Shown piece by piece: positions 8,840-34,294 of a stretch of DNA of 37,387 nt. A program made the translations under genes and the position numbers. Position 1 is the first letter of the stretch, and each line of letters starts with the position of its first letter. The DNA is from Desulfuromonadales bacterium (GTDB lineage: Bacteria > Desulfobacterota > Desulfuromonadia > Desulfuromonadales > UBA2294). The notes under the pieces were generated by a model. The model saw only the letters and a program-made list of their open reading frames with translations, had not been told where the DNA came from and made no database searches. The stretch is from contig JBFHOZ010000001.1 in NCBI GenBank assembly GCA_041592975.1, positions 1 to 37,387 on the forward strand, given 5' to 3'.

Positions 8840-9484
8840 TTATTCCAGAATCCTTTCCAGGCGCTCGAGGTCGTTGATGACCCGCCATTTTCCCTGACCG
8901 GTCTCGACCTTCTTCTTCCACTCCTCGAGCCGGCCCATGTACTTGCGCGGGTCCATGATGTCGCCGCGCAGCTTGGTGACGTTGAGGGCGACGACCTCGA
9001 TCCCCTGCAGCTGCAGCGGAATGTCGCGGACGTACCCCTTGGCGAGCTCCTCCTCCATGTCGGAGAAGACCAGGATCACCTTGCGTCCGGCGCCGGTCTC
9101 GTAGAGATACTCGGCCGCCTGCAGGATGCCGCCGGTGATGTCGGTGTAGGGGGCGCCCTTGACGGTCTTGACAAACTTGTCGATGTTGTCCTTGAAATCC
9201 CGCTTTTGCTGGTTGGAGACCGACGGCCGGCCGTCGAAGGTCATCTTCTGAACGATGTCCTTCTCGCTGAAGCTGCCGGTGTCGATCCGGGCGACAGCCA
9301 GCGAATCGCCCGGCTGCAGGGTGCCGAGCAGGTAGTTGATGATCGCCGCGGCCTTGTCGAGCTCCCGGGTATAGGTCCCGGAGGTGTCGAGCAGCATGTA
9401 GACCGCCTTGGAGTGGCTGGTGGTGTCGGAACAGCCGCCGGCCATGAGGACCAGACCGGCCAGCAGCAGGGATATTTTCTTCAT
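8840..9484 (-). CDS. VWA (von Willebrand factor A) domain lipoprotein
   Basis: Lipobox LMAGGC and a MIDAS-like DTSGT (AVYMLLDTSGTY), with later TDITGG and VFSDMEE. The start codon overlaps the stop of the upstream gene (ATGA, 9481-9484). Confidence 0.75.
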   Translation of the reverse strand: MKKISLLLAGLVLMAGGCSDTTSHSKAVYMLLDTSGTYTRELDKAAAIINYLLGTLQPGDSLAVARIDTGSFSEKDIVQKMTFDGRPSVSNQQKRDFKDNIDKFVKTVKGAPYTDITGGILQAAEYLYETGAGRKVILVFSDMEEELAKGYVRDIPLQLQGIEVVALNVTKLRGDIMDPRKYMGRLEEWKKKVETGQGKWRVINDLERLERILE

Positions 9485-10932
9485 GGGTGCACCTCCTCGC
9501 GATGTGGTGAATCGGGCTTGTCGTCGTGTGCGGATGCGGCTTGCCTTGCCGGTTTCGGTTCCCGGTGCAGCTTCTCCTCGATCCAGAGGGCCGGGAAGAT
9601 CAGCAGGTCGTACAGGGCGATGATCGCCTTGCCGAGATGGCTGATGATGTTGCCGGTCAGGCGCAGCACGAAGGCACCGGATCGCAGCGCCCAGGCGAGG
9701 GCGATGCCGATGACGGTCCGTGAAGAATGAATGAACGACTCGAGCGGAATGGCGACGAAGGTGAGGGCGAACGGCAGGACGAAGCCCATGACCATCTGCC
9801 CGGCGGTCGGGATAACGCTTTCGACCTGGGTCCTGACGGCCTCGGCTCCGGCCAGGGTCTGCCGGAGCGCCTCCATGTCGGCGGCGATCCGGTCGCGCAT
9901 GAAGGCGAGCGCCGACTCGACGCCGGCGAGGGTGAAGAGGATGATGAAGGAGATCCAGATCATCCGCTTGCGCATCCGGTCGTCGAGCTGGCCGATCACC
10001 GGGAAGAGGTGGGTGATGCGCAGCGACTCCATCAGGAACAGCCCCATCGAGATCTCCACCAGAATGATGACCAGGGCGGCAACATTGGAGGTCTTGAAGT
10101 TGCCGATGTAGCTGCCGCCGCCGACCATCTCCGACATCGGCAGGGCGATCAGGTTGAAGTTGATGATGGCGCCGCCGATGGCGATCAGCATGACCAGGCC
10201 GGAAATGAAGAACTGGGTCAGCGACGAGGACGAAAGGCGTCTTTCCGCCTGGTCCTCGCCGGCGCGGATCTGTTCGTATTCGTCCATCTTCGACGTGATC
10301 AGCTCAGAGCGCTCGAACAGCCCGGTGATGGTCTTGCCGACCTGCTCGAGGGTTTCGCTGAGCTTGCGCCAGACCGGCATCATCTTGTTGAGGGTCGCGT
10401 GGCGCTCCTGGCTCGCCTTGCGGAATTCGTCCATTGCCGACTTGTGGTGCTTGTCGAGGGTCCTGTTGATCTCACCGAGAATCTCGGCGACACCGCCGTC
10501 GGTGTTCGGCACCTGGGCGACCGCTTCGATGGCGGCGATCCAGGCGGGCGGCGACGGCGGCACCTCGGTGCTCTTGCGATAGTCCTCGTCGATGCGGGTG
10601 ATCAGGTCGGACATGCTGCGGTGGAAGGCGGGATAGGTCTGCAGGTCCCGCTTGACCACGGCGTCGACCCGGTGGAACTCCCGCTCCAGCTCCTTTTCGA
10701 CCGCGAGCGCCCCGGAGGCGAGCAGAACCTCGCGGTTGCGCTGCTTGAGGCGCTGCTCGGCGAGAATCAGCGACTTCGAGGCCATCCGCAGCGCCTGGGC
10801 GGCGACGCGGGTAAAGGCCTTGACCATGCGATGCATCTGCTGGCGCGCGAGGTAGAGCAGCACGAGCAGGATGATGACCAAAGCCGGCCAGGCGATGAGC
10901 GGATGCGTTTCGAGAACTGATAACAGAGACAT
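9481..10932 (-). CDS. Uncharacterised multipass membrane protein with a long helical (coiled-coil-like) cytoplasmic domain
   Basis: The ATG at 10932 follows AAGGAGG, while the track start at 10968 lacks an SD. A perfect TATAAT on the minus strand lies at 10981-10986. The protein has one N-terminal TM, about 230 aa of charged helical region, then 4-6 TM helices. I recognise no family. Confidence 0.75.
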   Translation of the reverse strand: MSLLSVLETHPLIAWPALVIILLVLLYLARQQMHRMVKAFTRVAAQALRMASKSLILAEQRLKQRNREVLLASGALAVEKELEREFHRVDAVVKRDLQTYPAFHRSMSDLITRIDEDYRKSTEVPPSPPAWIAAIEAVAQVPNTDGGVAEILGEINRTLDKHHKSAMDEFRKASQERHATLNKMMPVWRKLSETLEQVGKTITGLFERSELITSKMDEYEQIRAGEDQAERRLSSSSLTQFFISGLVMLIAIGGAIINFNLIALPMSEMVGGGSYIGNFKTSNVAALVIILVEISMGLFLMESLRITHLFPVIGQLDDRMRKRMIWISFIILFTLAGVESALAFMRDRIAADMEALRQTLAGAEAVRTQVESVIPTAGQMVMGFVLPFALTFVAIPLESFIHSSRTVIGIALAWALRSGAFVLRLTGNIISHLGKAIIALYDLLIFPALWIEEKLHREPKPARQAASAHDDKPDSPHREEVHP

Positions 10933-11148
10933 GCGAACCTCCTTGAAAAGACGCGATTCAGGATGCATCTCCTGATTTGGATTATATCTGCAAGGGGAGT
11001 TCCAGAAAATCCGGGGCAGTGAATTAAACTGCCTTCTCCCCTAATTCTCGCAGTTTTCAGGCGGTCTGCAAGGGGGCGGGTGTAATTGGTCGATTTTATT
11101 ATGGTGGAAACGGGTGAAGAGGCGGAGGGGGGGTAACATTTTTCGGCG

Positions 11149-11874
11149 TTAACCGCCGAGGTAGGCTTTCTTGACATCCGGGTTGTCCAACAGTTCCTGC
11201 CCGGTACCTTTGGCGACGATATTGCCGGTGTCGAGGACATAGCCGCGATGTGCAAGGTGCAGGGCGAGATTGGCGTTCTGTTCAACCAGGAGGATCGTCA
11301 TCCCTTCCTCATTGAGCTGCTTCAGCTTGCGAAAAAGTTCATACTTAAGGACCGGTGCGAGCCCCATAGAGGGTTCATCAAGTAGCAGGATTTCGCAGCC
11401 GGTCATGAGTGCACGGCCGACAGCGAGCATCTGCTGCTCGCCGCCACTCAATGATTCACTACGCTGATTCCGGCGTTCCTTGAGGCGGGGAAACAGATCG
11501 AAAATGCGCTCGTATTCGGAATCGAGATCGGCATCCTTCTCGCGCGCATAGGTTGCCAGCTTCAGGTTCTCCATGACTGAGAGATTGCCGAAGATTCTGC
11601 GACCCTCCGGAGAGAGGGCGAGGTTCAGTTTGCTCACCACGTCAGAAGGGCGGGTTTTAAGGATCGACTCGCCTTTGAACCGAATGTCGCCACCCACCAC
11701 GCGTGGGGCTTCCGGAGGAGCGAGACGGGCGACAGAGTAGAGGGTGGTGGTTTTGCCAGCACCGTTCGCGCCTATCAGGGTGACGATTTCGCCTTCATTG
11801 ACGTGAAAGCTGATCCCGTGCAACGCCTGGATGTTGCCGTACTTGACTTCAAGATTTTCGACTTGCAGAAGCAT
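11149..11874 (-). CDS. livF: Branched-chain amino acid ABC transporter ATP-binding protein LivF
   Basis: Walker A GANGAGKTT, signature LSGGEQQ and Walker B ILLLDEP. The ATG shares one base with the livG stop (TGATG). Confidence 0.92.
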   Translation of the reverse strand: MLLQVENLEVKYGNIQALHGISFHVNEGEIVTLIGANGAGKTTTLYSVARLAPPEAPRVVGGDIRFKGESILKTRPSDVVSKLNLALSPEGRRIFGNLSVMENLKLATYAREKDADLDSEYERIFDLFPRLKERRNQRSESLSGGEQQMLAVGRALMTGCEILLLDEPSMGLAPVLKYELFRKLKQLNEEGMTILLVEQNANLALHLAHRGYVLDTGNIVAKGTGQELLDNPDVKKAYLGG

Positions 11875-12680
11875 CAGATATTGTCATCTCCCAGATAAGC
11901 GGTAATAACCGCTTCGTTGTTGCGAATTTCATCCGGAGTGCCCTCGGCGATGGTCTCTCCGAAATCGATAACCTTGATATGGCTGCACAACTCCATGACC
12001 ACGTCCATGTGGTGCTCGATCATCCAGATGGTGACATCGAACTTTTCGTGAATCCAGCACACCAGGCGGATCAATTCCTTGACGTCGGCAGAGTTGAGGC
12101 CGGCGGCCGGTTCGTCGAGCAGCAGGAGCTTGGGGTGGGTTGACAGGGCACGGGCGATCTCCAGTTTGCGCTGGGTCCCGTAGGGCAGGTTCTTGGGGAA
12201 CTCGTCGGCAAAGCGCTTGAGGTTAAATACCTCGAGCAGTTCGTTGGCTTCCTCGGAAATCTGTGCTTCGCGCTGCTTGAAGCGTTTGGTGCGGAAGACG
12301 CTGCTGAAGAACCCGTAATTCAACCAGTAGTGCTGGGCGACGCGGATATTGTCGAGTACGGTCATGTCGTTCCAGAGGCGAATATTCTGGAAGGTGCGAG
12401 CGACACCCAGCGCGGTGACCTTGTGCGGCTTTAAGCCGGCGGTCGGTTGGCCGTTGACAAAGATCTCACCCGCAGTTGGCTGGTAAAAGCCGCTGACCAG
12501 GTTGAAAACGGTCGTTTTTCCGGCACCGTTAGGCCCGATCAGCCCGGTCAGCTGGCCTGGCATCAGCTTGAGGTTGAAGTCAGAGACGGCACGCAGGCCA
12601 CCGAACTGTTGGGTCATGCCGTGAACTTCGAGGACCGGTGTTTGCGATTGTTCGGGTGATATTGAATCTGCCATATTCAT
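11874..12680 (-). CDS. livG: Branched-chain amino acid ABC transporter ATP-binding protein LivG
   Basis: GPNGAGKTT, LPYGTQRKLEIARAL and LLLLDEPAAG, with a LivG-type C-terminus. The start is ATG 12680 or the TTG at 12695. Confidence 0.9.
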   Translation of the reverse strand: MNMADSISPEQSQTPVLEVHGMTQQFGGLRAVSDFNLKLMPGQLTGLIGPNGAGKTTVFNLVSGFYQPTAGEIFVNGQPTAGLKPHKVTALGVARTFQNIRLWNDMTVLDNIRVAQHYWLNYGFFSSVFRTKRFKQREAQISEEANELLEVFNLKRFADEFPKNLPYGTQRKLEIARALSTHPKLLLLDEPAAGLNSADVKELIRLVCWIHEKFDVTIWMIEHHMDVVMELCSHIKVIDFGETIAEGTPDEIRNNEAVITAYLGDDNI

Positions 12681-12698
12681 CGTGTCAGCCTGCAAGTC

Positions 12699-12819
12699 TT
12701 AACGCAAAGGCGCAAAAGGGTGAGGCAAGGCGCAAAGAGGTGCTTTGGTTTAAAACCACCCCTTGAGACCTTCCTGTATTCCTTGCGACTTTCATTTCAA
12801 CTCTGCGTCTTTGCGTTAA
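12699..12819. repeat. Low-GC imperfect palindromic intergenic element inside the liv operon (livM-livG spacer)
   Basis: Terminal inverted arms TTAACGCAAAGGCGCA (12699-12714) and TGCGTCTTTGCGTTAA (12804-12819) match 15/16 as complements. There is a central palindrome tggtttaaaacca and internal near-repeats gcaaaggcgcaaaaggg / gcaaggcgcaaagagg. Confidence 0.7.
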
Positions 12820-12823
12820 TTGT

Positions 12824-13894
12824 TTACTTAAACCTGTAAAACTTCTTCAGTTTCGGAAATATATCAGAGAGTTCACGGTTGCCCATGATCCCTTCGGGGC
12901 GGAACTGCATGACGATGACCAGCAGCAGCGGTATCATCACCCACTTGATGACGCCAGCCGAAGGTTCCCAGTCCGGGAAAACCATGGTCACCGGCGAGAG
13001 CAGGCCGTCAATAATGGCCTGCGAGCGCAACAGTTCCATCAACCCGGTGAACAGGATGGCAGAGAGGATCGCACCTGAAAGGGAGCCCATGCCGCCCAGG
13101 TAAACCATAACCATTGCTTCGGTCGACTTGAGGATGTTGAACGACTGCGGGTTAACGTAACCGATAATATGCGCATAGAGCCCGCCGGCACACCCGGCGA
13201 GACCGGCGGCAACCATGAAGTTGATGATCTTGATCTTGTTGGTGTTAACACTCATGATTTCGGCGGCAACTTCGTCCTGGCAGATGGCGTTGACGCCCTT
13301 GCCATAGGTGGAACTGATGAAGCGCCTGATCACCCAGACGTTGAATGCCGTGAAGAGAAGCACCCAGAAGAGCATCCACGGGCCATCGAAGATGTCGATC
13401 ATCGCCCAGACAGTATCCTTCATTCCCTGGAAACCGCGTGAACCACCGATGAAATCCATATTTTCGATCGCCGAGATGATCATGTAGTTGACGGCGATAG
13501 AAATGATCGCCAGGTAGTCATCCCGGGTCTTGAACGAAGGGATTGAGACCAGCAGCGAGGAAAGCGCGGCCACAACGCCGCCGATCAGAAGGATGACCGG
13601 AAAAACGAACGCCACCGAGGAGGCCGGCAGCAGGGGATCACCGAACTTGGTGCCGAAGCAGAAAACCGAGATGATCGAGGAGATGTAGGCGCCGACGCAC
13701 ATGAAACCGGCATGGCCGCAGGTGAACTCGCCCATGTTGCCGTTGACCAGGTTCAGGCTGGTCGACATGATTATGTTGATACCGATCGTCATAATGACGA
13801 TCTGGATATAGTTGTCGATCCAGCCGAAGTGCCCTGCAACCAGGATGAGCGCTGCGATGAAGACCATCAAAATGTTGAGAGAATATTGTCGCAT
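12824..13894 (-). CDS. livM: Branched-chain amino acid ABC transporter permease LivM
   Basis: About 10 TM helices, a LivM-like sequence pattern, and a position between livH and livG. Confidence 0.9.
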   Translation of the reverse strand: MRQYSLNILMVFIAALILVAGHFGWIDNYIQIVIMTIGINIIMSTSLNLVNGNMGEFTCGHAGFMCVGAYISSIISVFCFGTKFGDPLLPASSVAFVFPVILLIGGVVAALSSLLVSIPSFKTRDDYLAIISIAVNYMIISAIENMDFIGGSRGFQGMKDTVWAMIDIFDGPWMLFWVLLFTAFNVWVIRRFISSTYGKGVNAICQDEVAAEIMSVNTNKIKIINFMVAAGLAGCAGGLYAHIIGYVNPQSFNILKSTEAMVMVYLGGMGSLSGAILSAILFTGLMELLRSQAIIDGLLSPVTMVFPDWEPSAGVIKWVMIPLLLVIVMQFRPEGIMGNRELSDIFPKLKKFYRFK

Positions 13895-13908
13895 GGTTCA
13901 TCCCCCAA

Positions 13909-14820
13909 CTAGATCTTGGTGGATTGCGGGATGCCGAACAGGCCGGTCGGCTTTATCCACAGGATCAAGAGCAAAATGGTAAAGGCGAAGAGGTCACGAT
14001 AGGAGGACGGGAAGAACGTCACCACGCCAACCTCGATGAAGCCGAGCAAAAAACCGCCGACAAAAGCTCCCCTGATGTCACCGATACCACCAACGACGGC
14101 AGCGATAAACGCTTTCCAGCCGATCAGCATACCCATGAACGGTTCCAGCACCGGATAGCTCATGGCGAACAACAGGCCGGCGAGACCGGCGAAGCCGGAG
14201 CCGAGGACAAAGGTGATGACGATGATGTTGTCCATCGGAATCCCCATGAGAGGGATGGCAAACTTGTCGTAGGAAATGGCTCGCATCGCCATGCCGACCC
14301 TGGTCCTGGTGACCACCCAGTGCAGGAAGAGGAACACCACGATCGCTGCGGCAATGACCAGAACCTTCAGGTTTGTCACGGTTATGCCACCGACATTCCA
14401 GACCTGCTTTTCGATCAGCTCGGGGAATTTCAAGCGGCTGGCGCCAAGCACGGCCAGGTTTGAGTATTCCAGGATCAAGCCGCACATCAGGGCGGTGATG
14501 ACCACGTAGAGTCGGTGCGCGCCTTTGCGTCGCAATGGACGGTAGGCGATCCGCTCCAGGGTCACACCGACACAGGCGGTGAGGAGCATTGTCAAGGGAA
14601 CGGTGATGAGAAAGGCCCATGCCGGGGAGAGTCCGACGATGGGACCGAGCAGAAATCCGGCGACAAAGAATGAGATGTATGCACCGACCATGAAAATATC
14701 GCCATGGGCAAAGTTAATCAGGCGCAGTACACCGTACACAAGGGTGTAGCCGAGCGCGATGAGGGCGTAAAAGCTCCCCCACTGCAGAGCGTTCAAAATG
14801 TTTTGGAAAATGAAATCCAC
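13909..14820 (-). CDS. livH: Branched-chain amino acid ABC transporter permease LivH
   Basis: The GTG at 14820 is preceded by AAGGAAG and gives (M)DFIFQNILNALQWGSFYALIALGYTLVYG, the canonical LivH N-terminus. The track start at 14877 adds a non-hydrophobic extension. Confidence 0.9.
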   Translation of the reverse strand: MDFIFQNILNALQWGSFYALIALGYTLVYGVLRLINFAHGDIFMVGAYISFFVAGFLLGPIVGLSPAWAFLITVPLTMLLTACVGVTLERIAYRPLRRKGAHRLYVVITALMCGLILEYSNLAVLGASRLKFPELIEKQVWNVGGITVTNLKVLVIAAAIVVFLFLHWVVTRTRVGMAMRAISYDKFAIPLMGIPMDNIIVITFVLGSGFAGLAGLLFAMSYPVLEPFMGMLIGWKAFIAAVVGGIGDIRGAFVGGFLLGFIEVGVVTFFPSSYRDLFAFTILLLILWIKPTGLFGIPQSTKI

Positions 14821-14972
14821 CTGGGGTTCTTCCTTAAGATGATCTTTTGTGGTGCCGCTGAAGGCTCTGCGGCACAATACTTTGTTTGCCAGCCACCAAC
14901 TTTAATGCTTTTTGGTGGCTGCATCAATCCCTGTTTTATATCTCCGCCTCGGGGGTGCGGTGGTTTTGACAT

Positions 14973-15002
14973 AAAAAAGCGGGGGCCGTTAAAGGCCCCC
15001 GC
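14973..15002 (-). terminator. Intra-operon rho-independent terminator/attenuator between the binding-protein gene and livH
   Basis: The minus strand reads GCGGGGGCC-tttaac-GGCCCCCGC followed by TTTTTT, 30 nt after the stop of the substrate-binding protein gene. Confidence 0.65.
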
Positions 15003-15032
15003 ACTATCTTGACAGCCTGTATGTCGCCAATA

Positions 15033-16196
15033 TTACTCGGGGCAGACTGACTCCTCGAACTGGAAGCTGCCATCATCGGCAACTTTGACAATAACAGCAC
15101 ACTTGATCGGGTCGCCCTGCGCGTCGAACTTCGACGAACCGGTGACACCGTCAAAAGACTTGATCGCGGCCAGGCCGTCACGAATGGCAGCACGCATCTT
15201 GCGCGGGTTTTTCTCGACCTTGCCGGCGTTCTTGATGCCTTCGACCAGCAGGCCGATGGAGTCCCAGGTCAGGGCGGCGTAGTCGGCCGGCTCGGCCCCG
15301 TACTTAGCCTTGTAGCGGTCGATAAAGACCTTGGTGGCGCCCTTGGCGCCGGCGGCGGCGTAGTGGGTGGAGAAGTACTGGCCGTAGCACTGCTCACCGC
15401 AGAGTTTTACCAGGTCAGGGGTGCCCCAGGAGTCGGAACCCATGAAGGGGCCCTTGTAGCCGAGGTCACGGGCTTGCGGGATGATCAGGGCCACCTGGTT
15501 GTAGTTTTCGGGAACGAAAATGAAGTCCGGCTTGGCCGCAATAATGGTGGTCAGCTGGGCCGAGAAGTCCTGGTCCTTGGTGCCGTTGGACTCGTAAGCA
15601 ACGACCGGACCGAGCCCTTTTGCTTCCCAGGCGGACTTGAAGACTTCGGCCAGGCCGACCGAGTAGTCGTTGTTGACGTCGTAAAGAACGGCCGCTGTTT
15701 TGGCGCCAAACTTTTTGGCGGCAAAGTTTGCTACAACCGGACCCTGGAAGGGGTCAAGGAAGGCCGCGCGGAAGACCCAGGGGCGATCGAGCGTGGTGTT
15801 CGGGTTGGTCGACCAGGGGCTGATCATCGGAGTGCGGTTATCGTTGGCTGTACCGCCACCGGGAACAGCCTGCTTGGAGGAGTTGGGGCCGATGATGGCG
15901 ACGACCTGTTCCTGCTCGATAAGCTTGAGAGCCGCACTGACTGCCGATTCGGCCTTTGCTTCGTTGTCCATGTAAACAAACTCGAGCATGTACTTCTTGC
16001 CGCCGACCTCGAGGCCGCCGGCGCCGTTGATGTCTGCCAGGTACATCTCGGCAGCATTTTTCGAACCTTCCCCGACTTCCGGGATGTCACCGGTCAGGGG
16101 AATGTTGAAGCCGATCTTGATGGTGTCGGCTGCCAGCGCCTGGGACGATGCCAGGACGGTGGCGACAACGAATACGGAAAGAATCCCTCGCAACAT
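15033..16196 (-). CDS. livK: Branched-chain amino acid ABC transporter substrate-binding protein (LivK/LivJ-like, Peripla_BP_6)
   Basis: The ATG at 16196 is preceded by AAGGAGG. There is a signal peptide MLRGILSVFVVATVLASSQALA and a type I periplasmic binding fold (IKIGFNIPLTGD..., VVAIIGPNSS). Confidence 0.9.
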   Translation of the reverse strand: MLRGILSVFVVATVLASSQALAADTIKIGFNIPLTGDIPEVGEGSKNAAEMYLADINGAGGLEVGGKKYMLEFVYMDNEAKAESAVSAALKLIEQEQVVAIIGPNSSKQAVPGGGTANDNRTPMISPWSTNPNTTLDRPWVFRAAFLDPFQGPVVANFAAKKFGAKTAAVLYDVNNDYSVGLAEVFKSAWEAKGLGPVVAYESNGTKDQDFSAQLTTIIAAKPDFIFVPENYNQVALIIPQARDLGYKGPFMGSDSWGTPDLVKLCGEQCYGQYFSTHYAAAGAKGATKVFIDRYKAKYGAEPADYAALTWDSIGLLVEGIKNAGKVEKNPRKMRAAIRDGLAAIKSFDGVTGSSKFDAQGDPIKCAVIVKVADDGSFQFEESVCPE

Positions 16197-16279
16197 GATG
16201 CAACCTCCTTTGTCTGATGGATCAAATGAGGCGGGGGAAACGTCGCTGCCCCCGCCATGAAGAAACCGGATGGAAGCTT

Positions 16280-16309
16280 CTATTACACAGCAGAAAATTG
16301 AAATGTCAA
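16280..16309 (-). promoter_or_regulatory. Candidate sigma-70 promoter of the liv operon (TTGACA-18-TAATAG)
   Basis: The minus strand reads gcTTGACAtttcaattttctgctgtgTAATAGaag. A leader hairpin GGCGGGGG-N11-CCCCCGCC (16222-16248) lies between it and the SD. Confidence 0.4.
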
Positions 16310-16500
16310 GCATTTGTGGTCGCGCTGGCAACTATGTTCTCAACTGTTTCCGGATATTTATGTTACTATCTTCACCGTCGGGACGAAAGTCGCGGCATCG
16401 GCACGGACGGGCGATTCGGGACGGCGAACGTCACGGCGGCCTGTGCGCTGGCCGACGAAGAGCGTGGGAAGCCCCCCCCGTGGTGGCGGGTCGATCGGCG

Positions 16501-16529
16501 TTGCCTCAAGTATCGACGTCAGCTATATT
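16501..16529 (+). promoter_or_regulatory. Candidate sigma-70 promoter (TTGCCT-17-TATATT) of the REC-PilZ gene
   Basis: The hexamers lie at 16501-16506 and 16524-16529 with 17-nt spacing, about 105 nt upstream of ATG 16637. Confidence 0.45.
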
Positions 16530-16636
16530 TGCAGTTCTGAGCCGATGAAGGGGTGGCGACCTGCAACTGCCGGCGACTGCTTCGGAAGATTGTATCCGCT
16601 TCCGGGCCTGCAGCTTGACGCACCGGAGAATTTCTG

Positions 16637-17359
16637 ATGAAAGAGAAACACCGCCTGCTGCTGGTTGACGATATCCGCCTGATGCGGGGGATCGCCAAGA
16701 ATTATTTCAACCAGTCCGAGTTCCAGATCTCGACCGCGCGCGGCGGCCAGGAGGCGCTGCGCATGGCGGCCGCCATCCGGCCGCACCTGATCATCATCGA
16801 TGTCGACATGCCGGGAATGGACGGTGTCGAGTGCTGCCGGCGGATCAAGAACGACCCCGACCTGTTCACGACGCCGGTGATCCTGCTGGCGGAGAATGAC
16901 CGGGAGAAAATCGAGCACGGCTGGAGTTCCGGCTGCGACGGCCTGCTGGCGAGGCCGGTCGGCCGGCGCGAGCTGCTGACCGCGGCGCGCCAGTATGTCA
17001 CCCTGGCCAACCGGGCGGCACCGCGCATCGACCGCAATATCCTGGTGCGCTACGGCATGGACAAGGGGGAGGAGCGGCACGACTACGCCTGCAACCTGGG
17101 GACCGGCGGGCTATACCTGACCTCCGAGCGGATATTCGGCGAGGACGACGAGTTCGACATCGAGTTCCTCGTTCCGCGCAGCGACAGTGAAACCCGCTGC
17201 CGCGTCCGGGTCGCCTGGGTCAATCCGGCGGGCAAGTTGAAGCGGAACGACCTGCCTCCCGGAGCGGGGCTCGAGTTTGTCGACATCGACCGGGACTGCC
17301 GCTACCGCCTGCAGATGTTCGTCCTCGATTCGGCCCGCATGCAGCTCGGCGGAAAATAG
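16637..17359 (+). CDS. Response regulator receiver domain fused to a PilZ-like domain
   Basis: The N-terminal REC has LLLVDD and LIIIDVDMPGMDG, but the conserved Lys position reads ARP and the Ser/Thr position reads Ala. The C-terminal beta-barrel is PilZ-like with degenerate RxxxR / DxSxxG motifs (PRIDRN, NLGTGGLYL). Confidence 0.75.
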   Translation: MKEKHRLLLVDDIRLMRGIAKNYFNQSEFQISTARGGQEALRMAAAIRPHLIIIDVDMPGMDGVECCRRIKNDPDLFTTPVILLAENDREKIEHGWSSGCDGLLARPVGRRELLTAARQYVTLANRAAPRIDRNILVRYGMDKGEERHDYACNLGTGGLYLTSERIFGEDDEFDIEFLVPRSDSETRCRVRVAWVNPAGKLKRNDLPPGAGLEFVDIDRDCRYRLQMFVLDSARMQLGGK

Positions 17360-17432
17360 CGGCGCTTGTCGTCGCGGCGGTGTCGGGCAGGTGGCCTGGC
17401 ACTGTCGTTCTTTCATGGAGAAGGAGGGGGAA

Positions 17433-17801
17433 ATGTCTCGTAAGAAAGTTGTCGTTATTGATGATTGCGCCCTGCACCTGCAGCTGGTCAGGGATATCCT
17501 CGAACCGGCGGGGTTCGAGGTTCTGACCGCCGATTCGGGTATCGTCGCCAACACCTACATTTACACCACTCCGGTCCCGGATCTGCTGCTGGTCGATGTC
17601 GAGATGCCGATGATCAACGGCACGGAAAAGGTCCGATTGCTGAAAAAAAGGGACAAAAGCCGACATATCCCGACGTTGCTGATGTCGGCCAAGGCGCCGG
17701 AGGAGATGGCGGCGCTGACCCGTGATGCGGGCGCCGAGGGGTTTATCTGCAAGCCGTTCGACCAGGAGCAGCTGCTGTCGGTCATCTCCCGGTACCTGTG
17801 A
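17433..17801 (+). CDS. Single-domain CheY-like response regulator
   Basis: The ATG at 17433 is preceded by AAGGAGG. It carries a complete receiver signature (VVVIDD, LLLVDVEMP, LLMSAK, ICKPF). Confidence 0.88.
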   Translation: MSRKKVVVIDDCALHLQLVRDILEPAGFEVLTADSGIVANTYIYTTPVPDLLLVDVEMPMINGTEKVRLLKKRDKSRHIPTLLMSAKAPEEMAALTRDAGAEGFICKPFDQEQLLSVISRYL

Positions 17802-17865
17802 CGTTTTCATCCCCGGCTTCGGTGCTACAGTTGCTGAGTCGGCAAACTTCGCAACGGAAGGAATC

Positions 17866-19014
17866 ATGACCAATCGGTGCGCACAGGCACTTTCGTTTCT
17901 TCTTGTCGTCCTGCTCATCTTTCCGGCAGGCTGCAACCTTTTGGAAAAGAAGCCGTTGCAGATCGGCTTCGTCGGCGGGCTGACCGGCCGGACGGCGAGC
18001 CTCGGCGTTGCCGGCCGCGACGGCACGTTGCTGGCCGTCGAGGAGGTCAACCGTGCCGGGGGGATCGACGGCCGCCCGGTCGAACTGGTCATCAGGGACG
18101 ACATGCAGAACGAGGCGGAAGCCCTGAAGATCGTCAGGGAGTTTATCGACATGAAGCTGCCGGTCGTTATCGGGCCGATGACCAGCTCTATGGGGGTGGT
18201 CATGGCGCCGGAAATCAGTCGCAGCGACACCCTGATGGTCAGCCCGACCGTCGGCACCATGCTGCTCGGACAGCAGGACGACAATTTCCTTCGGGTTTAC
18301 CCGCAATGCATGATGATGTCCCGGTCGCTGGCCGAATTCGCCTACCATGAAAAATCGCTGCGCCGCTTTGTCATCATTTACGATGTCGGCAACAGCGCGT
18401 TTACCGAAAGCTGGAAAACATGCTTCAGCGAGCAGTTCTCGGCGCTTGGCGGTGAGATCGTCGCCGGAATCAGCTTCACCTCCGGCGGTCAGCACCGCTT
18501 TCTCGGGCTCATGGAGGAGGCTTTCGGCCATGACCCGGACGGCATCCTGATTCTCGCCAACTCCCTCGACACCGCCTTGCTGGCCCAGCAGGGGCTGAAG
18601 ATGGGGAAGGCTATCCCCCTGTTTACCAGCGAGTGGTCGATGACCAGGGACCTGCTCAGCTCCGGCGGGCAGTCGGTCGAGGGGATCACCCTCTTCCATA
18701 CCTTCAACGAGGCGTCGCGGGAAAAACGGTTCCTCGACTTCAAGGAACGCTATGTCGGGCGATTCAGCCACCCCCCCTCCTTTCCGGCGATCCATGCCTA
18801 CGATGCCACGCGAATCGTGCTGGAGGGTCTCCGCGGTGGCGCCCGAAGCGGCGCCGAACTGAAGCAGACGCTGCTGCAGCAGGCGTCCTTCGAAACGCTT
18901 CAGGGGGAACTCAGCTTCAATGCCTACGGCGATGTCAACCGGGATCTGTTCCTGACAGTGGTTCGGGAGGGGGAATTCATCGTCGTTCGCAAGGTGCCGG
19001 TCACGGATCAATGA
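17866..19014 (+). CDS. Orphan periplasmic solute-binding lipoprotein (LivK-like type I fold)
   Basis: ATG 17866 and lipobox IFPAGC. LQIGFVGGLTGRTASLGVAGRDG..EEVNRAGGIDGRPVEL is typical of the Peripla_BP_6 family. No permease or ATPase genes are adjacent. Confidence 0.85.
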   Translation: MTNRCAQALSFLLVVLLIFPAGCNLLEKKPLQIGFVGGLTGRTASLGVAGRDGTLLAVEEVNRAGGIDGRPVELVIRDDMQNEAEALKIVREFIDMKLPVVIGPMTSSMGVVMAPEISRSDTLMVSPTVGTMLLGQQDDNFLRVYPQCMMMSRSLAEFAYHEKSLRRFVIIYDVGNSAFTESWKTCFSEQFSALGGEIVAGISFTSGGQHRFLGLMEEAFGHDPDGILILANSLDTALLAQQGLKMGKAIPLFTSEWSMTRDLLSSGGQSVEGITLFHTFNEASREKRFLDFKERYVGRFSHPPSFPAIHAYDATRIVLEGLRGGARSGAELKQTLLQQASFETLQGELSFNAYGDVNRDLFLTVVREGEFIVVRKVPVTDQ

Positions 19015-19018
19015 TGCG

Positions 19019-19732
19019 ATGAAACCACTCCCCGCGCTTCTGTTCACCGTGGAGCATGGCGACAACAAGGTTCCCGAGGAGTTCGCCCACCTCTTCGCAG
19101 GAGAGGAGTCGGTCCTGGCGAGTCATCGCGGCTACGACCCCGGCGCCGGCGAACTGGCCGTCCGCTTTTCCACCCGCTTCCACGCGCCCTGCGAGCATGC
19201 CGAGATCACCCGGCTGCTGATCGACCAGAACCGCTCCCTGCACAATCGCCGGGCACTCTTCTCGGAATATACGCGCCACCTCCCGAGGGAGGTCAAGGAG
19301 CGGATTGTCGAGGTCTGTTACTGGCCCTACCAGTACCTGGTCAGGAAGAGACTCGACACCCTGCTGGCGGAGTCCGGATCGGTTCTCCACCTGGCGATCC
19401 ATTCCTTCACCCCGGAGCTGCGCGGTCGGGTGCGCAACTGCGACGTCGGACTGATGTACGACCCGCGGCGCGCGAAGGAAGCGGCGTTCTGCCGCAGGTG
19501 GCAGGAAGCGCTGCGCGGGATCTCTCCCGCGGTTCGCGTTCGGCGCAACTACCCCTACCGTGGCGCCAGCGACGGCGTTGTCCAGTCGATGCGGCGGCTT
19601 TATCCGGAGCCGGCCTACACCGGGCTGCAGATCGAGGTGAACCAGAAATACCCGTTTGGCGATCGCCAGCCCTGGAAAGAGTTGCAGAAGGTGATTGTTG
19701 ACAGTTTTGCGGTCGCTCTGGAAGGATTTTAG
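19019..19732 (+). CDS. N-formylglutamate amidohydrolase (FGase, PF05013) family protein
   Basis: FTVEHGDNKVPEEF, TRLLIDQNRS, LAIHSFTPEL and GLQIEVNQ blocks match the FGase family pattern. The gene starts 5 nt after the binding-protein stop. Confidence 0.8.
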   Translation: MKPLPALLFTVEHGDNKVPEEFAHLFAGEESVLASHRGYDPGAGELAVRFSTRFHAPCEHAEITRLLIDQNRSLHNRRALFSEYTRHLPREVKERIVEVCYWPYQYLVRKRLDTLLAESGSVLHLAIHSFTPELRGRVRNCDVGLMYDPRRAKEAAFCRRWQEALRGISPAVRVRRNYPYRGASDGVVQSMRRLYPEPAYTGLQIEVNQKYPFGDRQPWKELQKVIVDSFAVALEGF

Positions 19733-27691: not shown

Positions 27692-30304
27692 TTGCCGGAC
27701 AGATTTCTGAATAGAGTACAGAATATCCGCAAACGGGTTCTCTGGCCTCTCGGCCTGACGCTGACGTTTTTCCTCCTTCTTTTTCTCGCCGTTTTCCAGA
27801 TATATCTCCAGCGTGAGCTGACCCGCGAACTGGACGGCCATATCAACTCGGTCTGGCACCTGTACGAAGAAATCCTCTCAGAGCGTGCCGATGACATGAC
27901 AAGCTTCATTGGCGCGATCGAGGGGAATGAGCCGCTCCGCCAGGCGATGGCGCTCCAGGACCGCGAGGCGCTCCTGGAGCACGCGGGACCGATCTACCGC
28001 AAGCTCCAGAAGAACCAGCCGTTCACCCACTTCTATTTTCACGCCCCGAATGGGATCAACCTGCTCCGGGTGCACAAGCCGGAAACGCATGGCGACCTGA
28101 TCGATCGCGTGACCATGAAGCAGGCCCGCAGCGCCCTGCAGGTGAGTTCTGGCGCCGAGCTCGGGCCGCTGGGAACCTTCACCCTGAGGACGGTCTTCCC
28201 CTGGTTCGTAAACGGCAAGCTGATCGGGTTCATCGAGCTTGGCGAGGAGGTCGAACCGCTCATCGAGATGGTCGCCCGCCAGAGCGGGTCGCAGATGGCC
28301 ATTCTGGTCAGCAAGAACCGGCTGACACGCAGCGGCTGGCAGTCAGGACAGGAGATGCTCGGCAGGGCCGCCGACTGGGAACTGCTGCCGGGGCATGTGG
28401 TCACGGCGGTCACCGACAGCCAGTTCCTGCAGAAGTTGCCGCGGATCGTGACGCCGGAAACCGTCTCCGGCGAGAAGAGGGTTGATATCAACCTGTTCAA
28501 CCAGCATTTCCGGGGAGGATTTCTGCCGCTGATCGACGTCAGCGGCCAGGAGATTGGCGTGATGCTGGTGGTCAGGGATATCGATGCGACGATGCAGAAC
28601 CATGGCGTGGCGACGGCGCTGGTGACGGTCTTCTGCATTCTCCTCGGCGGCGCACTGTTCCTGTCGGCTTACTCGATTCTCGGCCGGACGGAGCACACCC
28701 TGGAGCGTGCCCGACAGACCCTGATCGACGAGATCGAAAAGACCAGCCAGGCCAATACCCAGCTCGGACTGGAGATCGGCGAAAGGCGGGCCGCCGAGGA
28801 AGCCCTGCGCAAGGCACACGACGAACTGGAGCGACGGGTCGTCGAGAGAACGGCGCAGCTCGATCAGCAGAAAAAACTGCTGGAAAACCTGCTCACCAAC
28901 ATCCCCTCGCTGGTCGCCTGGAAAAATCTCGACCGGGAGTACATCGGCTGCAACAGCCGCTACGCCGCGCTGGCCGGCAGCAGCGAAGAGGAGATTGCCG
29001 GAAAGACCGACGGCGACCTTGCCTGGCGACCGTCGCTCAGGCGGCATCTGGCCGCAATCGAGGAGGAGGTCCTTGCCGAGAACAGGGCGGTGCTGGGATA
29101 TGAAGTGGTCGACGAGAGCCCCGACGGAAACGACTATTATATCTGCAGCGCCGTACCGCTGCGCGACGAGGCCGGAGCGGTGTTCGGCATGGTCAGCATC
29201 ATGCAGAACATCACCGAGCAGAAGGAGCGGCAGCGGCTTCTGGAAACCACTCTGGTCGAATCGCGACAGGCGAGTGACCGCATCGCCGGGGTCATGCGCT
29301 CGGTCGATGATGCCCTGTTCGTCGTCGATGCGGATGACAACATCCTGTTGATGAACGCGAGTGCCGGCGCCCTGCTGCGGCTGAATCCGAACGAGGTCAT
29401 CGGCCGGCCCGTGGCAAAGGCGATCTGGGTCGAATCCCTGCGGGAAAAAGTCATCGAGATCCTGCGTCGGCGCGAAGGGGGTGCGGTTTTCGATTTCGAG
29501 ATCGGCGAAGACGGCAAGGAGGCGCAGGTGATCCTCCAGGCACACAGCTCTGTCCTGGTCGACCCGCAGGGACGCTACGAGGGGATGATCTTTCTGGCGC
29601 GGGACGTGACGCGGGACCGGAGCATGGACCGCCTGAAAAGCGACTTCATCTCGGTCGCCGCCCATGAATTGCGAACGCCGCTGGCGACCATTCTCGGTTT
29701 CTCCGAACTGCTGCTGGACGGCAATGTCGAGAGTGAAGAGGACCGACGGGACTTTGTCCGGACCATACACGACAAGGCGGATGCCCTCTCCCGGCTGCTG
29801 GACGATATGCTCGATATCAGCCGGATCGAATCGGGTCGGGGGCTGGAGCTGTTCATCGAGAAGATTCCGGTCGAGTCGCTGTTCCTGCCGGTTCTCAATC
29901 AATACCGCAAACGGTTCCCGGAGCGGCGGTTCGATATCGATCTCGACGACCCCGAGCTGTTGCTGCTGGCCGACCCGGAGAAGATCGCCCAGGTTCTCGA
30001 GAATCTCCTCAGCAACGCGGTCAAGTATTCGCCCGAAAAAAGCCGGATCGCGATCGTCGGCAAAACGACTGTCGACGGCTACCGCCTGTCGGTCATCGAT
30101 GAGGGGATCGGCATGACGCCCGAGCAGGCCAGCCACGCCTTCGAAAAGTTCTACCGGGGGGACAATGCCGACAAGGCGATCAAGGGGACGGGCCTCGGAC
30201 TGACTATCGCCAGGCATATCGTCGAGCAGCACGACGGGACCATCCGGCTTGAAAGCCGGCCGCAGAAAGGGACCTGCGTCCACGTCCTGCTGCCGGTCGC
30301 CTGA
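27692..30304 (+). CDS. Sensor histidine kinase with periplasmic Cache-like domain, two PAS domains, HisKA and HATPase_c
   Basis: TTG start after GGGGGGA. TM1 is followed by a Cache-like sensor (FTHFYFHAPNGINLLRVHKPETHGD) and TM2. A coiled coil and PAS repeats follow. The H-box is FISVAAHELRTPL, the N-box is LLSNAVKYSP, and the G-boxes are DEGIGM and GTGLGL. Confidence 0.9.
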   Translation: MPDRFLNRVQNIRKRVLWPLGLTLTFFLLLFLAVFQIYLQRELTRELDGHINSVWHLYEEILSERADDMTSFIGAIEGNEPLRQAMALQDREALLEHAGPIYRKLQKNQPFTHFYFHAPNGINLLRVHKPETHGDLIDRVTMKQARSALQVSSGAELGPLGTFTLRTVFPWFVNGKLIGFIELGEEVEPLIEMVARQSGSQMAILVSKNRLTRSGWQSGQEMLGRAADWELLPGHVVTAVTDSQFLQKLPRIVTPETVSGEKRVDINLFNQHFRGGFLPLIDVSGQEIGVMLVVRDIDATMQNHGVATALVTVFCILLGGALFLSAYSILGRTEHTLERARQTLIDEIEKTSQANTQLGLEIGERRAAEEALRKAHDELERRVVERTAQLDQQKKLLENLLTNIPSLVAWKNLDREYIGCNSRYAALAGSSEEEIAGKTDGDLAWRPSLRRHLAAIEEEVLAENRAVLGYEVVDESPDGNDYYICSAVPLRDEAGAVFGMVSIMQNITEQKERQRLLETTLVESRQASDRIAGVMRSVDDALFVVDADDNILLMNASAGALLRLNPNEVIGRPVAKAIWVESLREKVIEILRRREGGAVFDFEIGEDGKEAQVILQAHSSVLVDPQGRYEGMIFLARDVTRDRSMDRLKSDFISVAAHELRTPLATILGFSELLLDGNVESEEDRRDFVRTIHDKADALSRLLDDMLDISRIESGRGLELFIEKIPVESLFLPVLNQYRKRFPERRFDIDLDDPELLLLADPEKIAQVLENLLSNAVKYSPEKSRIAIVGKTTVDGYRLSVIDEGIGMTPEQASHAFEKFYRGDNADKAIKGTGLGLTIARHIVEQHDGTIRLESRPQKGTCVHVLLPVA

Positions 30305-31137: not shown

Positions 31138-31887
31138 ATGGAGATGAAAGAGCATTATCGCCAGGCAGCCGAGCTGGTCGCGCGGGCGCACCGTATCGTC
31201 GCCTTCACCGGTGCCGGAATCTCGACCGAGTCGGGGCTGGCCGACTTCCGCTCGGCCGGCGGACTCTGGGAGCGTCACCGGATCGTCACCTACCAGGAAT
31301 TCGTTGCCAGCCACGAGGCGCGCATCGAGTACTGGAGCATGCGCCGCGAGCTGATCCCGGCGATCCTCGCGGCGAAGCCGAACGGGGCGCACAAGGCTCT
31401 GGCCGAGCTGGAGAGGATGGGGAAGCTGCAGACCGTCATCACCCAGAATATCGACGGACTGCACCAGGCCGCCGGCAGCGGCGACGTTATCGAGCTGCAC
31501 GGCACCAACCTGACCGCCAGCTGCCTCGACTGCGGGAAAATGTGGCCGATCGCGGAGATCCAGGAGCGCCTCGAGGCCGACGACCTCGACCCGCAATGCG
31601 ACCGTTGCGGCGGGGCGATCAAGCCGGACACGGTCTCCTTCGGCCAGGCGATGGCGCAGTGGGTGATGAACCGGGCCTTCGAGGTGGCCGATGGGTGCGA
31701 CCTGATGATCATGATCGGTTCCTCCCTCGAGGTGCAGCCGGCCGCCGCGATTCCCGGGGTCGCCGCCCGGGCCGGCGCGAAGCTGATCTTCGTCAACCGG
31801 ACCGAAACCCCCTATGACCGGATCGCCGACCTGATTTTCCGCCGGGGGTGCGGCGAGGTGATGCGGGGGATATTGGCCGCGGGATGA
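31138..31887 (+). CDS. cobB: NAD-dependent protein deacylase (sirtuin, CobB/Sir2 family)
   Basis: GAGISTESGLADFRS, QNIDGLH and a zinc ribbon CLDCG...CDRCGG. The second ATG at 31144 has better SD spacing (AAGGA). Confidence 0.88.
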   Translation: MEMKEHYRQAAELVARAHRIVAFTGAGISTESGLADFRSAGGLWERHRIVTYQEFVASHEARIEYWSMRRELIPAILAAKPNGAHKALAELERMGKLQTVITQNIDGLHQAAGSGDVIELHGTNLTASCLDCGKMWPIAEIQERLEADDLDPQCDRCGGAIKPDTVSFGQAMAQWVMNRAFEVADGCDLMIMIGSSLEVQPAAAIPGVAARAGAKLIFVNRTETPYDRIADLIFRRGCGEVMRGILAAG

Positions 31888-31991: not shown

Positions 31992-32888
31992 TCACCCTCG
32001 CCCGAACCAGGGAGACAGCCGCAGCAGCCGCACCGCCAGGGTCTCGACCGAAATCCGTGTCTCGAAATCAAGCTTGCGCAGCCACCTGTGCGGCAGGGCA
32101 TCCAGGCCGTAGAACGCACCGGCGATCATGCCGCCGATGGCGCCGGTGGTGTCGGCGTCCCCCCCCTGGTTGACGATGCCGGTCAGGCACTCCTCGAAGG
32201 ATGCGGTCGAAAAGAGGAAGTGGAACACCGTCCGCAGGGTCTCGACCACGTAGCCGCTCGCCTGGCCATCGTAATGATTGAAGCGGAAGTTGGGGAACTC
32301 GGCGACCAGCGCGCGGGTCAGGCGATGCAGTTCGAAGCGGTCGGCACCGAGCATTGCGGCCTGGACCATGCGGCCGGTGCAGATACAGGCGGCGTCGGAG
32401 AGCGGATGGTGGTGGGTCAAATGTGCCTGTTCCAGGGCGCAGTGCTGCAGCAGCTCGTCGTCGCCGAGGGTGAAGAGGGCGACCGGCGCCATCCGCATCG
32501 CCGCACCGTTGCCGGCATCCCACTCGTTCGGCGCCACCGCCAGTTCGCCGGTACGCATGTGCTGGCGGATCCCCTTGCGCACCGTTGAGCCGATATCCAC
32601 CGGTTTGCTCCGCATCCAGAGGACGAAGTTGCGGGCGATGTCGGCGAGGTTCCATTCGCCGCAGGTTGACAGGCTGCGGGCGATGGCAAGGGACATCTCG
32701 GTGTCATCGGTCACCTGCCCCGGCTTGAGGTTGAGCCAGCCGCCGCCGACGATTTTCCGGTGGACCTTGAATTTCGCCCGGATCTCTCCCGGCGTCATGA
32801 ACTCGGTCGTCGCACCGAGTGCGTCGCCGAGCGCCAGGCCCAGGAAGGCGGCCCTGCCGCGTGATGTGACCTCGTCGCGATCATCCAC
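31992..32888 (-). CDS. draG: ADP-ribosyl-[dinitrogen reductase] glycohydrolase-like protein (ADP-ribosylglycohydrolase family, DraG)
   Basis: ARH-family N-terminus GLALGDALGATTEF and TDDTEM, and C-terminal GGDADTTGAIGGMIAGAFYG. The gene overlaps the draT stop by 8 nt. Confidence 0.85.
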   Translation of the reverse strand: MDDRDEVTSRGRAAFLGLALGDALGATTEFMTPGEIRAKFKVHRKIVGGGWLNLKPGQVTDDTEMSLAIARSLSTCGEWNLADIARNFVLWMRSKPVDIGSTVRKGIRQHMRTGELAVAPNEWDAGNGAAMRMAPVALFTLGDDELLQHCALEQAHLTHHHPLSDAACICTGRMVQAAMLGADRFELHRLTRALVAEFPNFRFNHYDGQASGYVVETLRTVFHFLFSTASFEECLTGIVNQGGDADTTGAIGGMIAGAFYGLDALPHRWLRKLDFETRISVETLAVRLLRLSPWFGRG

Positions 32889-33675
32889 CGGTCAACACCT
32901 TCACTTCGTACTCGCCGCCGATCACCATCACCTCCTCCTCCCCCTTGAGCAGGGCATTGGGGAGCAGGTCGGAGCGGAAGACCATCTTGACGACCGGCAC
33001 CTCGGCCTGCAGAACCCGGGTTCCGAATTCCCAGGCCCGCTCGAAATCGGTGGTGAAGGAGACCAGGTTGTTGAGCCGCACCAGGTGGTGGTTCCGGCCG
33101 AGATCCCTGAGAATACGCTGCTCGTTGAAATCGTTGATGCCGCGGTAGAGGGTGAGGGACGCGGTGACCGGCAGGGCGAGGCCCATCTCGTACTGGGCAT
33201 ATTCGTAGAGCAGGTCGAACTGCTGGTAGATGGCGCTGGACCGGGCCTTTCCCTGCATCCGGTCCTTGAGGTAGCGGTGGTAGGCTTCGGAGTGGATGTC
33301 CTCGATCGGCCGGTGGTGAAAGGTCGGCGCCAGGCCGAAGCGGCTCTCGACCCACCCCTTGAGCACCGCCCCCTCGCGCGAGTTCGACTCGAACATCCAG
33401 CCGCGCAAAAAACGGAGGTAGCTGTTCTTGAGGCTCTTGCTGCCGCTTCTCGACGCCTCCTGCTCCCACTGGTGCAGCTGGAAGGTGACGTCCATGTAGT
33501 CGTGGAACTGCAGGCCGCGCATCTCGCGGGTTCCGAGCTTCGCCAGCCGGTCGAACAGCAGTCGGTTCGCCTGGCGCACCCCCTGGATCTCGAGCGGCTT
33601 CGGGTTCCGGTTGAAATAGTGCGAGGCGATCACCCAGGGGGGCAGGTTGCAGAGATTGAGCGACGCCGACTGCAC
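32881..33675 (-). CDS. draT: NAD+--dinitrogen-reductase ADP-D-ribosyltransferase-like protein (DraT)
   Basis: GTG start lies 4 nt after the upstream stop. From memory, blocks EGAVLKGWVESRFGLAPTFH, LYRGINDF, VRLNNLVSFT and KGEEEVMVIGGEYEVK correspond to the conserved blocks of Rhodospirillum/Azospirillum DraT. Confidence 0.85.
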   Translation of the reverse strand: MQSASLNLCNLPPWVIASHYFNRNPKPLEIQGVRQANRLLFDRLAKLGTREMRGLQFHDYMDVTFQLHQWEQEASRSGSKSLKNSYLRFLRGWMFESNSREGAVLKGWVESRFGLAPTFHHRPIEDIHSEAYHRYLKDRMQGKARSSAIYQQFDLLYEYAQYEMGLALPVTASLTLYRGINDFNEQRILRDLGRNHHLVRLNNLVSFTTDFERAWEFGTRVLQAEVPVVKMVFRSDLLPNALLKGEEEVMVIGGEYEVKVLTGG

Positions 33676-33679
33676 CGGA

Positions 33680-34243
33680 TCAGCTCTCCATCAGGATAAT
33701 CGCTTCGGCGACTTCCTTCATCGACTTGCGCTTGTCCATGGCGATCTTCTGCATTTTCCGGTACGCCTCCGGCTCGCTCATCCCCTTCTCCATCAGCAGA
33801 CCCTTCGCCTTGTCGACCTGCTTGCGGGTTTCGAGCGCCTCCTTGAGCTTGGCGTTCTCCTCCTGCAGGTTGCTGATTTCGATGAAGCGGTGGATCGCCA
33901 GCTCGACCGCCGCCCTGAGCTGGTCGGCGTTGAACGGCTTGAGGATGTAGTTGCTGACGCCGGCGTCGCGGGCCCGCTCGATCGTCTCGGTTTCGGTCGC
34001 CCCGGTCAGCAGGACGATTGGCGCCGCGACCTTTTTGCCTATTTTTTCGGCAGCGGTGATGCCGTCCATGACAGGCATCGAGACGTCGAAGACCATCAGC
34101 AACGGGTTTTCGGTCGGTGCCAGCTCGACCGCCTGGGCGCCGTTTTCCGCCTCGACGATCCGGTCAAAGCCGTAATCGGCGAGGGTTTCCGCCACCTGGC
34201 GGCGGATCAGCGGTTCGTCGTCGGCAATCAATGCAGTCTTCAT
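33680..34243 (-). CDS. Response regulator with ANTAR RNA-binding output domain (AmiR/NasT/GnfR-like)
   Basis: The ATG at 34243 follows GAGGAGGAG. The REC has LIADDE, LMVFDVSMP and ILKPF. A coiled-coil linker is followed by ANTAR (RKQVDKAKGLLMEKGMSEPEAYRKMQKIAMDKRKSMKEVAEAII). Confidence 0.9.
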   Translation of the reverse strand: MKTALIADDEPLIRRQVAETLADYGFDRIVEAENGAQAVELAPTENPLLMVFDVSMPVMDGITAAEKIGKKVAAPIVLLTGATETETIERARDAGVSNYILKPFNADQLRAAVELAIHRFIEISNLQEENAKLKEALETRKQVDKAKGLLMEKGMSEPEAYRKMQKIAMDKRKSMKEVAEAIILMES

Positions 34244-34278
34244 TTTATTACTCCTCCTCTGGGGTGAAAACCATATAG

Positions 34279-34294
34279 TGCATATACGGTGCCA
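34279..34294 (-). promoter_or_regulatory. Sigma-54 (-24/-12) promoter upstream of the ANTAR-RR/draT/draG operon
   Basis: The minus strand reads TGGCAC-cgtat-ATGCA against the consensus TGGCAC-N5-TTGCA. GG and GC have the correct 10-nt spacing, about 35-50 nt upstream of ATG 34243. Confidence 0.6.

Follow-up and report, generated by a model that had tools for sequence, protein, structure and literature searches.

We have identified what we take, with a probability of about 0.75, to be a sigma-54-dependent gnfR-draT-draG operon, the Desulfuromonadales form of a nitrogen-fixation control module. It lies on the minus strand at positions 31992-34294 of a 37,387-nucleotide (nt) stretch of DNA from a Desulfuromonadales bacterium (assembly GCA_041592975.1, contig JBFHOZ010000001.1, positions 1 to 37,387), which is referred to in its entirety as the window. 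The genes encode a response regulator with REC and ANTAR domains, a DraT-type ADP-ribosyltransferase and a DraG-type ADP-ribosylglycohydrolase. Judged by its sequence, the three-gene operon with its nitrogen-type (sigma-54) promoter is real. It is likely to be a unit induced by nitrogen limitation that joins an antiterminator for nif leaders to a reversible ADP-ribosylation switch for NifH. By gene content and order, the window presents the standard Desulfuromonadales module detached from nif. The family of every component is characterized and the logic of regulation is that of the Geobacter model; no new mechanism or protein family is involved.

The operon is tightly packed. The gnfR-like REC-ANTAR gene (33680-34243; 187 amino acids) begins with ATG at 34243 and stops at 33680. 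After a gap of 4 nt, draT (32881-33675; 264 amino acids), for the NAD+:dinitrogenase-reductase ADP-ribosyltransferase, begins with GTG at 33675 and stops at 32881, and draG (31992-32888; 298 amino acids), for the ADP-ribosyl-[dinitrogenase reductase] glycohydrolase, begins with GTG at 32888, overlaps draT by 8 nt and stops at 31992. The coordinates, the gap and the overlap had all been given in the original prediction, a model's reading of the letters alone, and were confirmed as given. All three frames are of coding type, with a GC content at third codon positions (GC3) of 0.79-0.90, and no terminator-like sites were found within the genes or at their junctions. The predicted 5' leader (34244-34268, minus strand) of ~25 nt carries a ribosome-binding site, GAGGAGGAG (34259-34251), just before the regulator's ATG. 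Its folding is unexceptional (z = -1.5), and a leader of this length could not accommodate a terminator/antiterminator.

The promoter element TGGCACCGTATATGCA occupies 34294-34279 on the minus strand and shows the GG-N10-GC spacing of a -24/-12 element, with GG at 34293-34292 and GC at 34281-34280. Its TGGCAC-N5-ATGCA core fits 10 of 11 consensus positions, the GC is 36 nt before the ATG, and a transcription start is predicted near 34268. The motif TGGCAC-N5-WTGCW has a single match in the 37.4 kb, where 0.07 would be expected by chance; a match was present in 7 of 100 shuffles. The same trio of genes was found in 14 other Desulfuromonadales species (L002, L005-L014 and L085-L087, where L-numbers are our handles for related loci), and in 11 of them, or 12 of 15 with the window, the orthologous REC-ANTAR gene is preceded by YGGCAY-N5-NTGCW. 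Across these 12 species the GC is 35-69 nt from the start codon. When the intergenic region of the window was aligned with that of L006, which has a different upstream gene, the -24/-12 element was the sole conserved block. The exceptions are L085, L086 and L087, which have no -24/-12 element of their own; there the regulator gene closely follows another gene (a GAF-PAS kinase gene in L085, amtB in L086 and L087) and probably belongs to a longer operon. In Geobacter sulfurreducens, gnfR has TGGAACACTTTATGCT 62 nt before its start and has in common with the window element an unusual ATGC(T/A) -12 box. The gnfR promoter was found by primer extension to be of RpoN type and to be activated through GnfL/GnfM under nitrogen fixation (Ueki & Lovley 2010, PMC2995071). 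The near-consensus -24/-12 element proposed in the original prediction is unique in the window, conserved among its relatives and similar to that of G. sulfurreducens gnfR, and the comparison with GnfR made there was apt, given that gnfR is RpoN-dependent (PMC2995071) and has its element about as far from the start codon. The window element is flanked by a 9-nt inverted repeat, ACCATATGG ... CTATATGGT (34300-34270, minus strand), of which the downstream TATATGG is also present in L005; the full repeat shows no conservation.

The regulator matches the Pfam models Response_reg (92 bits) and ANTAR (73 bits). Alignments with GnfR and with Rv1626 (PdtaR) of Mycobacterium tuberculosis showed that the acidic pocket D8/D9, the phospho-acceptor D53 and K103 are kept. 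Identity to G. sulfurreducens GnfR (L088, 9061-9627) is 49%. In a small tree, the DraT-linked regulators, with that of the window among them, were monophyletic in 98 of 100 bootstraps, and GnfR was sister to this group to the exclusion of PdtaR in 72 of 100, in a tree with only two outgroups. Genomic context was more telling than sequence for a GnfR-type identity. Orthologous regulator genes hold a position upstream of nifH in several species, as gnfR does; the window gene is not next to nif, whereas its orthologues in L009, L010, L013, L086 and L087 are.

DraT matches DRAT (PF07357) over its full length, with 365 bits and residues 7-260 aligned to model positions 2-256 of 256. In an alignment of 34 sequences it keeps all 14 invariant and 21 near-invariant columns, including R178, S206, E246 and E248, Arg, Ser and Glu-x-Glu positions that we take to have the catalytic role expected of an Arg-specific ADP-ribosyltransferase. 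The family is small, with 297 clusters at 50% identity matching at E <= 0.001, and a structure search returned no solved structure of any DraT relative. In a neighbor-joining tree, the window protein forms a subclade with those of L005 and L006, sister to L004, in which draT is 4.3 kb from nifH. The original prediction had proposed placing this DraT in a phylogeny, and it falls among nif-linked DraTs rather than outside the DraT clade: it has an ordinary branch length inside a Desulfuromonadales clade in which nif-linked and unlinked copies are mixed, which argues against a diverged paralogue. Several full-length members of the family in Desulfuromonas records (P0014, P0029 and P0055) carry the name 'N-acyl homoserine lactonase' in NCBI and UniRef, which looks like a propagated misannotation.

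DraG matches ADP_ribosyl_GH (229 bits) and the equivalog model TIGR02662 (dinitro_DRAG) with 420.6 bits, where the cut-off is 337.05. Against the Rhodospirillum rubrum DraG structure 2WOC it scores 321 bits and keeps GATxEF (as GATTEF), TDDTEMS and GGDADTTG, which are presumably the binuclear metal-site motifs of DraG. In L085, draT and draG likewise overlap by 8 nt. At the level of sequence, these matches establish the enzyme identities of DraT and DraG, just as the promoter and the operon structure are backed by sequence and conservation. All three gene assignments and the operon reading of the original prediction hold under the family models, the packing of the genes and the absence of internal terminators.

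The distribution of the trio was surveyed by a DraT profile scan of species-representative genomes, in which at least 588 genomes had a DraT relative; the loci of the best 80 were retrieved and searched with tblastn. A REC-ANTAR gene immediately precedes draT-draG in 10 of the 10 closest species (L005-L014), all of Desulfuromonadales type. The trio was also found in Geoalkalibacter halelectricus, Geopsychrobacter electrodiphilus, Pelobacter seleniigenes (L086) and a related 3.6-Mb genome (L087). All 14 other species agree in gene order and orientation, and the spacing between tblastn matches is 7-20 nt in 8 of 11 loci, reaching ~100 nt in L008. The retrieved loci without the REC-ANTAR gene come from a Geobacteraceae metagenome-assembled genome (MAG), from other MAGs labelled Deltaproteobacteria, and from Verrucomicrobia, Fibrobacteres and Alpha-, Beta- and Gammaproteobacteria, and in most of these draT is a few hundred bases from nifH. 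Linkage of the trio to nif varies. In L009 and L010, nifHD directly follows it, and in L086 and L087 the cluster reads GAF-PAS kinase, glnK-amtB, REC-ANTAR, draT, draG, three small open reading frames that we call orfA-C, FKBP and nifHDK. It is unlinked to nif in Geoalkalibacter halelectricus, Geopsychrobacter electrodiphilus and Desulfuromonas sp. CSMB_57. The original prediction had called the arrangement unfamiliar. It is in fact the common one in Desulfuromonadales, frequently adjoining glnK-amtB and nifHDK, and is plainly visible in many public genomes; that it is undescribed still stands to the extent that our literature searches on ANTAR with DraT/DraG found no paper describing a gnfR-draTG fusion or operon. 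One locus of the survey, L013 (JBFWJC010000003.1), is titled 'MAG: Pedobacter sp.' yet carries a Desulfuromonadales-type gnfR-draT-draG and nifHD, which suggests a binning or labelling error.

The nif leaders of these relatives supply the putative target of the regulator. The nifH leaders of L004, L009, L010, L013, L015 and L090 each carry CAGGCAANGGCGCC, the published RNA site of GnfR, or a sequence close to it, just before a terminator; the GGC-AANGGC-GCC core of this site would form a hexaloop hairpin. The best model for the window is Desulfuromonas sp. CSMB_57, its closest analogue, which has the trio on one contig (L012) and nifHDK on another (L090). On L090, nifHDK lies behind the sigma-54 promoter TGGCACGCCCAGTGCA, the hairpin CGGGCAAAGTCGCC and a terminator, there is no ANTAR gene beside nifH, and further nif-type genes are present (NifX-like, radical-SAM, a molybdate ABC transporter and homocitrate-synthase-like). 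In the window itself, CAGGCAANGGCGCC has 6 matches at <=2 mismatches where 2.6 are expected; all are in coding regions and none has a terminator, and they were rejected as targets. At gathering thresholds, Rfam returned one tRNA and nothing else from the window and four related loci; nif leaders do not form a curated family there.

The closest characterized counterpart is G. sulfurreducens gnfR (GSU2822), which has the same REC-ANTAR architecture at nearly the same length (188 vs 187 amino acids). TGGAACACTTTATGCT and TGGCACCGTATATGCA are both RpoN-type -24/-12 elements with an ATGC(T/A) -12 box. The Geobacter gene sits upstream of nifH, as do the orthologues in the relatives of the window, while the window copy is away from nif; the RNA site and terminator known for Geobacter GnfR recur in the nifH leaders of these relatives. 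In contrast to the window gene, which is fused to draT-draG, G. sulfurreducens gnfR is monocistronic: a GC-rich hairpin and T-run of its own come after it (L088, 9628-10000), and beyond them the nifH promoter and published leader. No draT or draG was found within 10 kb of G. sulfurreducens nifH. The window pair agrees with draT-draG of R. rubrum and Azospirillum brasilense in both enzyme families and in gene order. In alpha-, beta- and gammaproteobacterial loci, however, draT is beside nifH with no ANTAR gene, and R. rubrum draTG expression is low and constitutive. The window pair is distal in a sigma-54 operon headed by a response regulator, which implies induction together with nitrogenase. 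Pelobacter seleniigenes (L086) and L087 have the same trio with similar packing and a regulator of 66% identity; theirs is embedded in a nitrogen cluster without its own -24/-12 element, whereas the window trio stands alone with its own promoter. Among solved structures, the best match to the regulator is M. tuberculosis PdtaR (Rv1626, PDB 1S8N; 167 bits and 50% identity, with both domains in common), which lies outside the DraT-linked group (98 of 100 bootstraps). We know of no link between PdtaR and nitrogen fixation genes.

Just downstream of draG, the window locus is evidently rearranged, to judge from the gene order. A conserved orfA-orfB-orfC-FKBP set follows draG in L004, L005, L006 and L085-L087 and is missing from the window, where the convergent gene for a Sir2/CobB NAD-dependent deacylase (31138-31887, plus strand) has its stop 104 nt from that of draG. 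No recognizable terminator was found between these stops. Although the deacylase gene adjoins ADP-ribosylation genes, it has no synteny with the trio in any relative and was rejected as a part of the system. In L005 (5990-7574) and L006 (5120-6675), the orfA-orfB-orfC-FKBP set has its own sigma-54-like element TGGCCCGRWTCCTGCT, hairpin leader and terminator, so that draG ends the upstream unit there. In L004, an exact GnfR RNA site precedes the set.

The original prediction, which placed no cognate kinase in the window, needs one correction: a histidine kinase is encoded 1.7 kb from draG (27692-30304, plus strand; 870 amino acids, with dCache_3, two PAS, HisKA and HATPase domains). This protein is unrelated to the kinase that accompanies the trio elsewhere: it has only generic ATPase-domain similarity to the trio-linked GAF-PAS kinase, is non-syntenic and was rejected as the cognate partner. 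Orthologous GAF-PAS-HisKA kinases, 47-70% identical between genomes, are encoded at L085 8393-9970, L086 4181-5770 and L087 6248-7825. In Geopsychrobacter the kinase gene precedes the REC-ANTAR gene by 30 nt, and in the two other genomes by a few kb. This GAF-PAS-HisKA protein is a candidate cognate kinase; Geobacter GnfK, unlike it, is without a sensor domain.

We propose the following mechanism. Under limitation for fixed nitrogen, an enhancer-binding protein of the NtrC/GnfM type would activate RpoN-RNA polymerase at the -24/-12 element, where both the activator and the inducing condition are inferred by analogy with Geobacter. The three genes would be carried on one mRNA and be translationally coupled. 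The REC-ANTAR protein, phosphorylated by a kinase encoded elsewhere, would bind the hexaloop hairpins in nif, and probably glnK-amtB, leaders such that no terminator is formed; this step is modelled on G. sulfurreducens GnfR and on the leaders of the relatives. DraT and DraG would be produced alongside nitrogenase, and NifH, their presumed substrate, could be turned off by ADP-ribosylation and on again as ammonium or energy status changes. In the lineage of this genome, the module would have been separated from nifHDK and the orfA-orfB-orfC-FKBP set after draG lost.

A number of results weigh against this interpretation. Searches of the 37-kb window with tblastn found no homologues of NifH, NifD, NifK, PII or Amt, in agreement with the original prediction that nifH, glnB/K and amtB are missing from it, and no GnfR-type leader was found within the window. 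Two NifH candidates obtained by a search with the L004 NifH belong to other samples, not to this MAG, and were rejected. The regulator is 50% identical to PdtaR, so the 49% to GnfR is no higher. A search for a shared activator site in the 210 nt preceding the element in 12 species gave none, dyads and k-mers being no more numerous there than in shuffled controls. Finally, no terminator-like site was found from the stop of the upstream L,D-transpeptidase gene (34359) to the promoter element, so read-through from that gene may contribute to expression. The missing nif, glnK and amtB genes and the two identity values would suit a nif-independent module, in which a PdtaR-like general regulator accompanies a DraT/DraG pair acting on a substrate other than NifH, nitrogenase having been lost or the genes never having been used for it. 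The nif-unlinked trios of Geoalkalibacter halelectricus and Geopsychrobacter electrodiphilus fit such a history, and nifD has been reported absent in some Geobacterales, a related order (PMC8516083). We regard it as improbable, as the window DraT nests with nif-linked orthologues at ordinary branch lengths, DraG scores above the dinitro_DRAG equivalog cut-off and DraT belongs to a small family that is beside nifH in most loci sampled. CSMB_57, moreover, has an unlinked trio and carries nifHDK with a GnfR-type leader. Since that genome combines an unlinked trio with a full nif cluster elsewhere, a DraT substrate other than NifH is unlikely in the present genome. For nif-distant modules of Desulfuromonadales, including this one, a wider role is quite doubtful; it might comprise a non-NifH or additional DraT/DraG target, a broader ANTAR nitrogen-stress regulon, and a signal from a clade-specific GAF-PAS kinase instead of GnfK.

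The open stretch behind the transpeptidase gene, the chance matches among the shuffles and the three loci (L085, L086 and L087) in which a regulator gene without its own element closely follows another gene are what might be expected if the -24/-12 element were not a working promoter, and the operon were transcribed by read-through from the L,D-transpeptidase and OmpA genes or from an unrecognized sigma-70 promoter. This, too, is improbable. The element is kept in 12 species although the upstream gene varies, for example in L006 and L002; the sole sigma-70-like match (9 of 12) overlaps the ribosome-binding site; and Geobacter gnfR has been found experimentally to be RpoN-dependent (PMC2995071). 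It might instead be supposed that the neighboring genes are transcribed separately, for example with a constitutive draTG. The model for this is an alphaproteobacterial analogy, constitutive draTG expression being reported for Rhodospirillum, and no sequence support for it was found in the locus. Neither a promoter nor a terminator would fit into a 4-nt gap or an 8-nt overlap, and the 14 other species show no change of order or orientation, with close spacing in most; such a division is very improbable.

If the sigma-54-dependent gnfR-draT-draG operon functions as proposed, the DraT/DraG switch of Desulfuromonadales shares a sigma-54 transcript with the antiterminator that permits transcription of nif, and both layers of control should appear only under nitrogen limitation. 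This would be a modest point of comparative regulation for environmentally important metal-reducing diazotrophs. It would also be an aid to genome annotation, several DraT proteins being mislabelled in public records.

The closest relatives of the window are Desulfuromonas, Geopsychrobacter and Geoalkalibacter, and a near-identical 4.7-kb contig of MAG GCA_041591715.1 encodes an identical DraT. On its upstream side, the operon is bordered by genes for the L,D-transpeptidase and an OmpA-family protein, the only window genes syntenic with the trio in close relatives; those for the histidine kinase, an alpha/beta hydrolase and the Sir2/CobB deacylase are non-syntenic. Outside the operon the window holds genes of housekeeping type; besides those just named, they encode ApbE, Hsp33, chorismate synthase, RadC, a U32 peptidase, a Liv-type ABC transporter and a REC-PilZ protein. 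An open reading frame of 495 amino acids (9481-10968, minus strand) has coding-type GC3 (0.86) and is without a Pfam or NCBIfam match. In the region 11149-19732, where no sigma-54-like element was seen, the Liv-type transporter genes form a minus-strand operon for a binding protein, two permeases and two ATPases. A second binding protein is encoded divergently from it, together with the REC-PilZ protein and an N-formylglutamate amidohydrolase.

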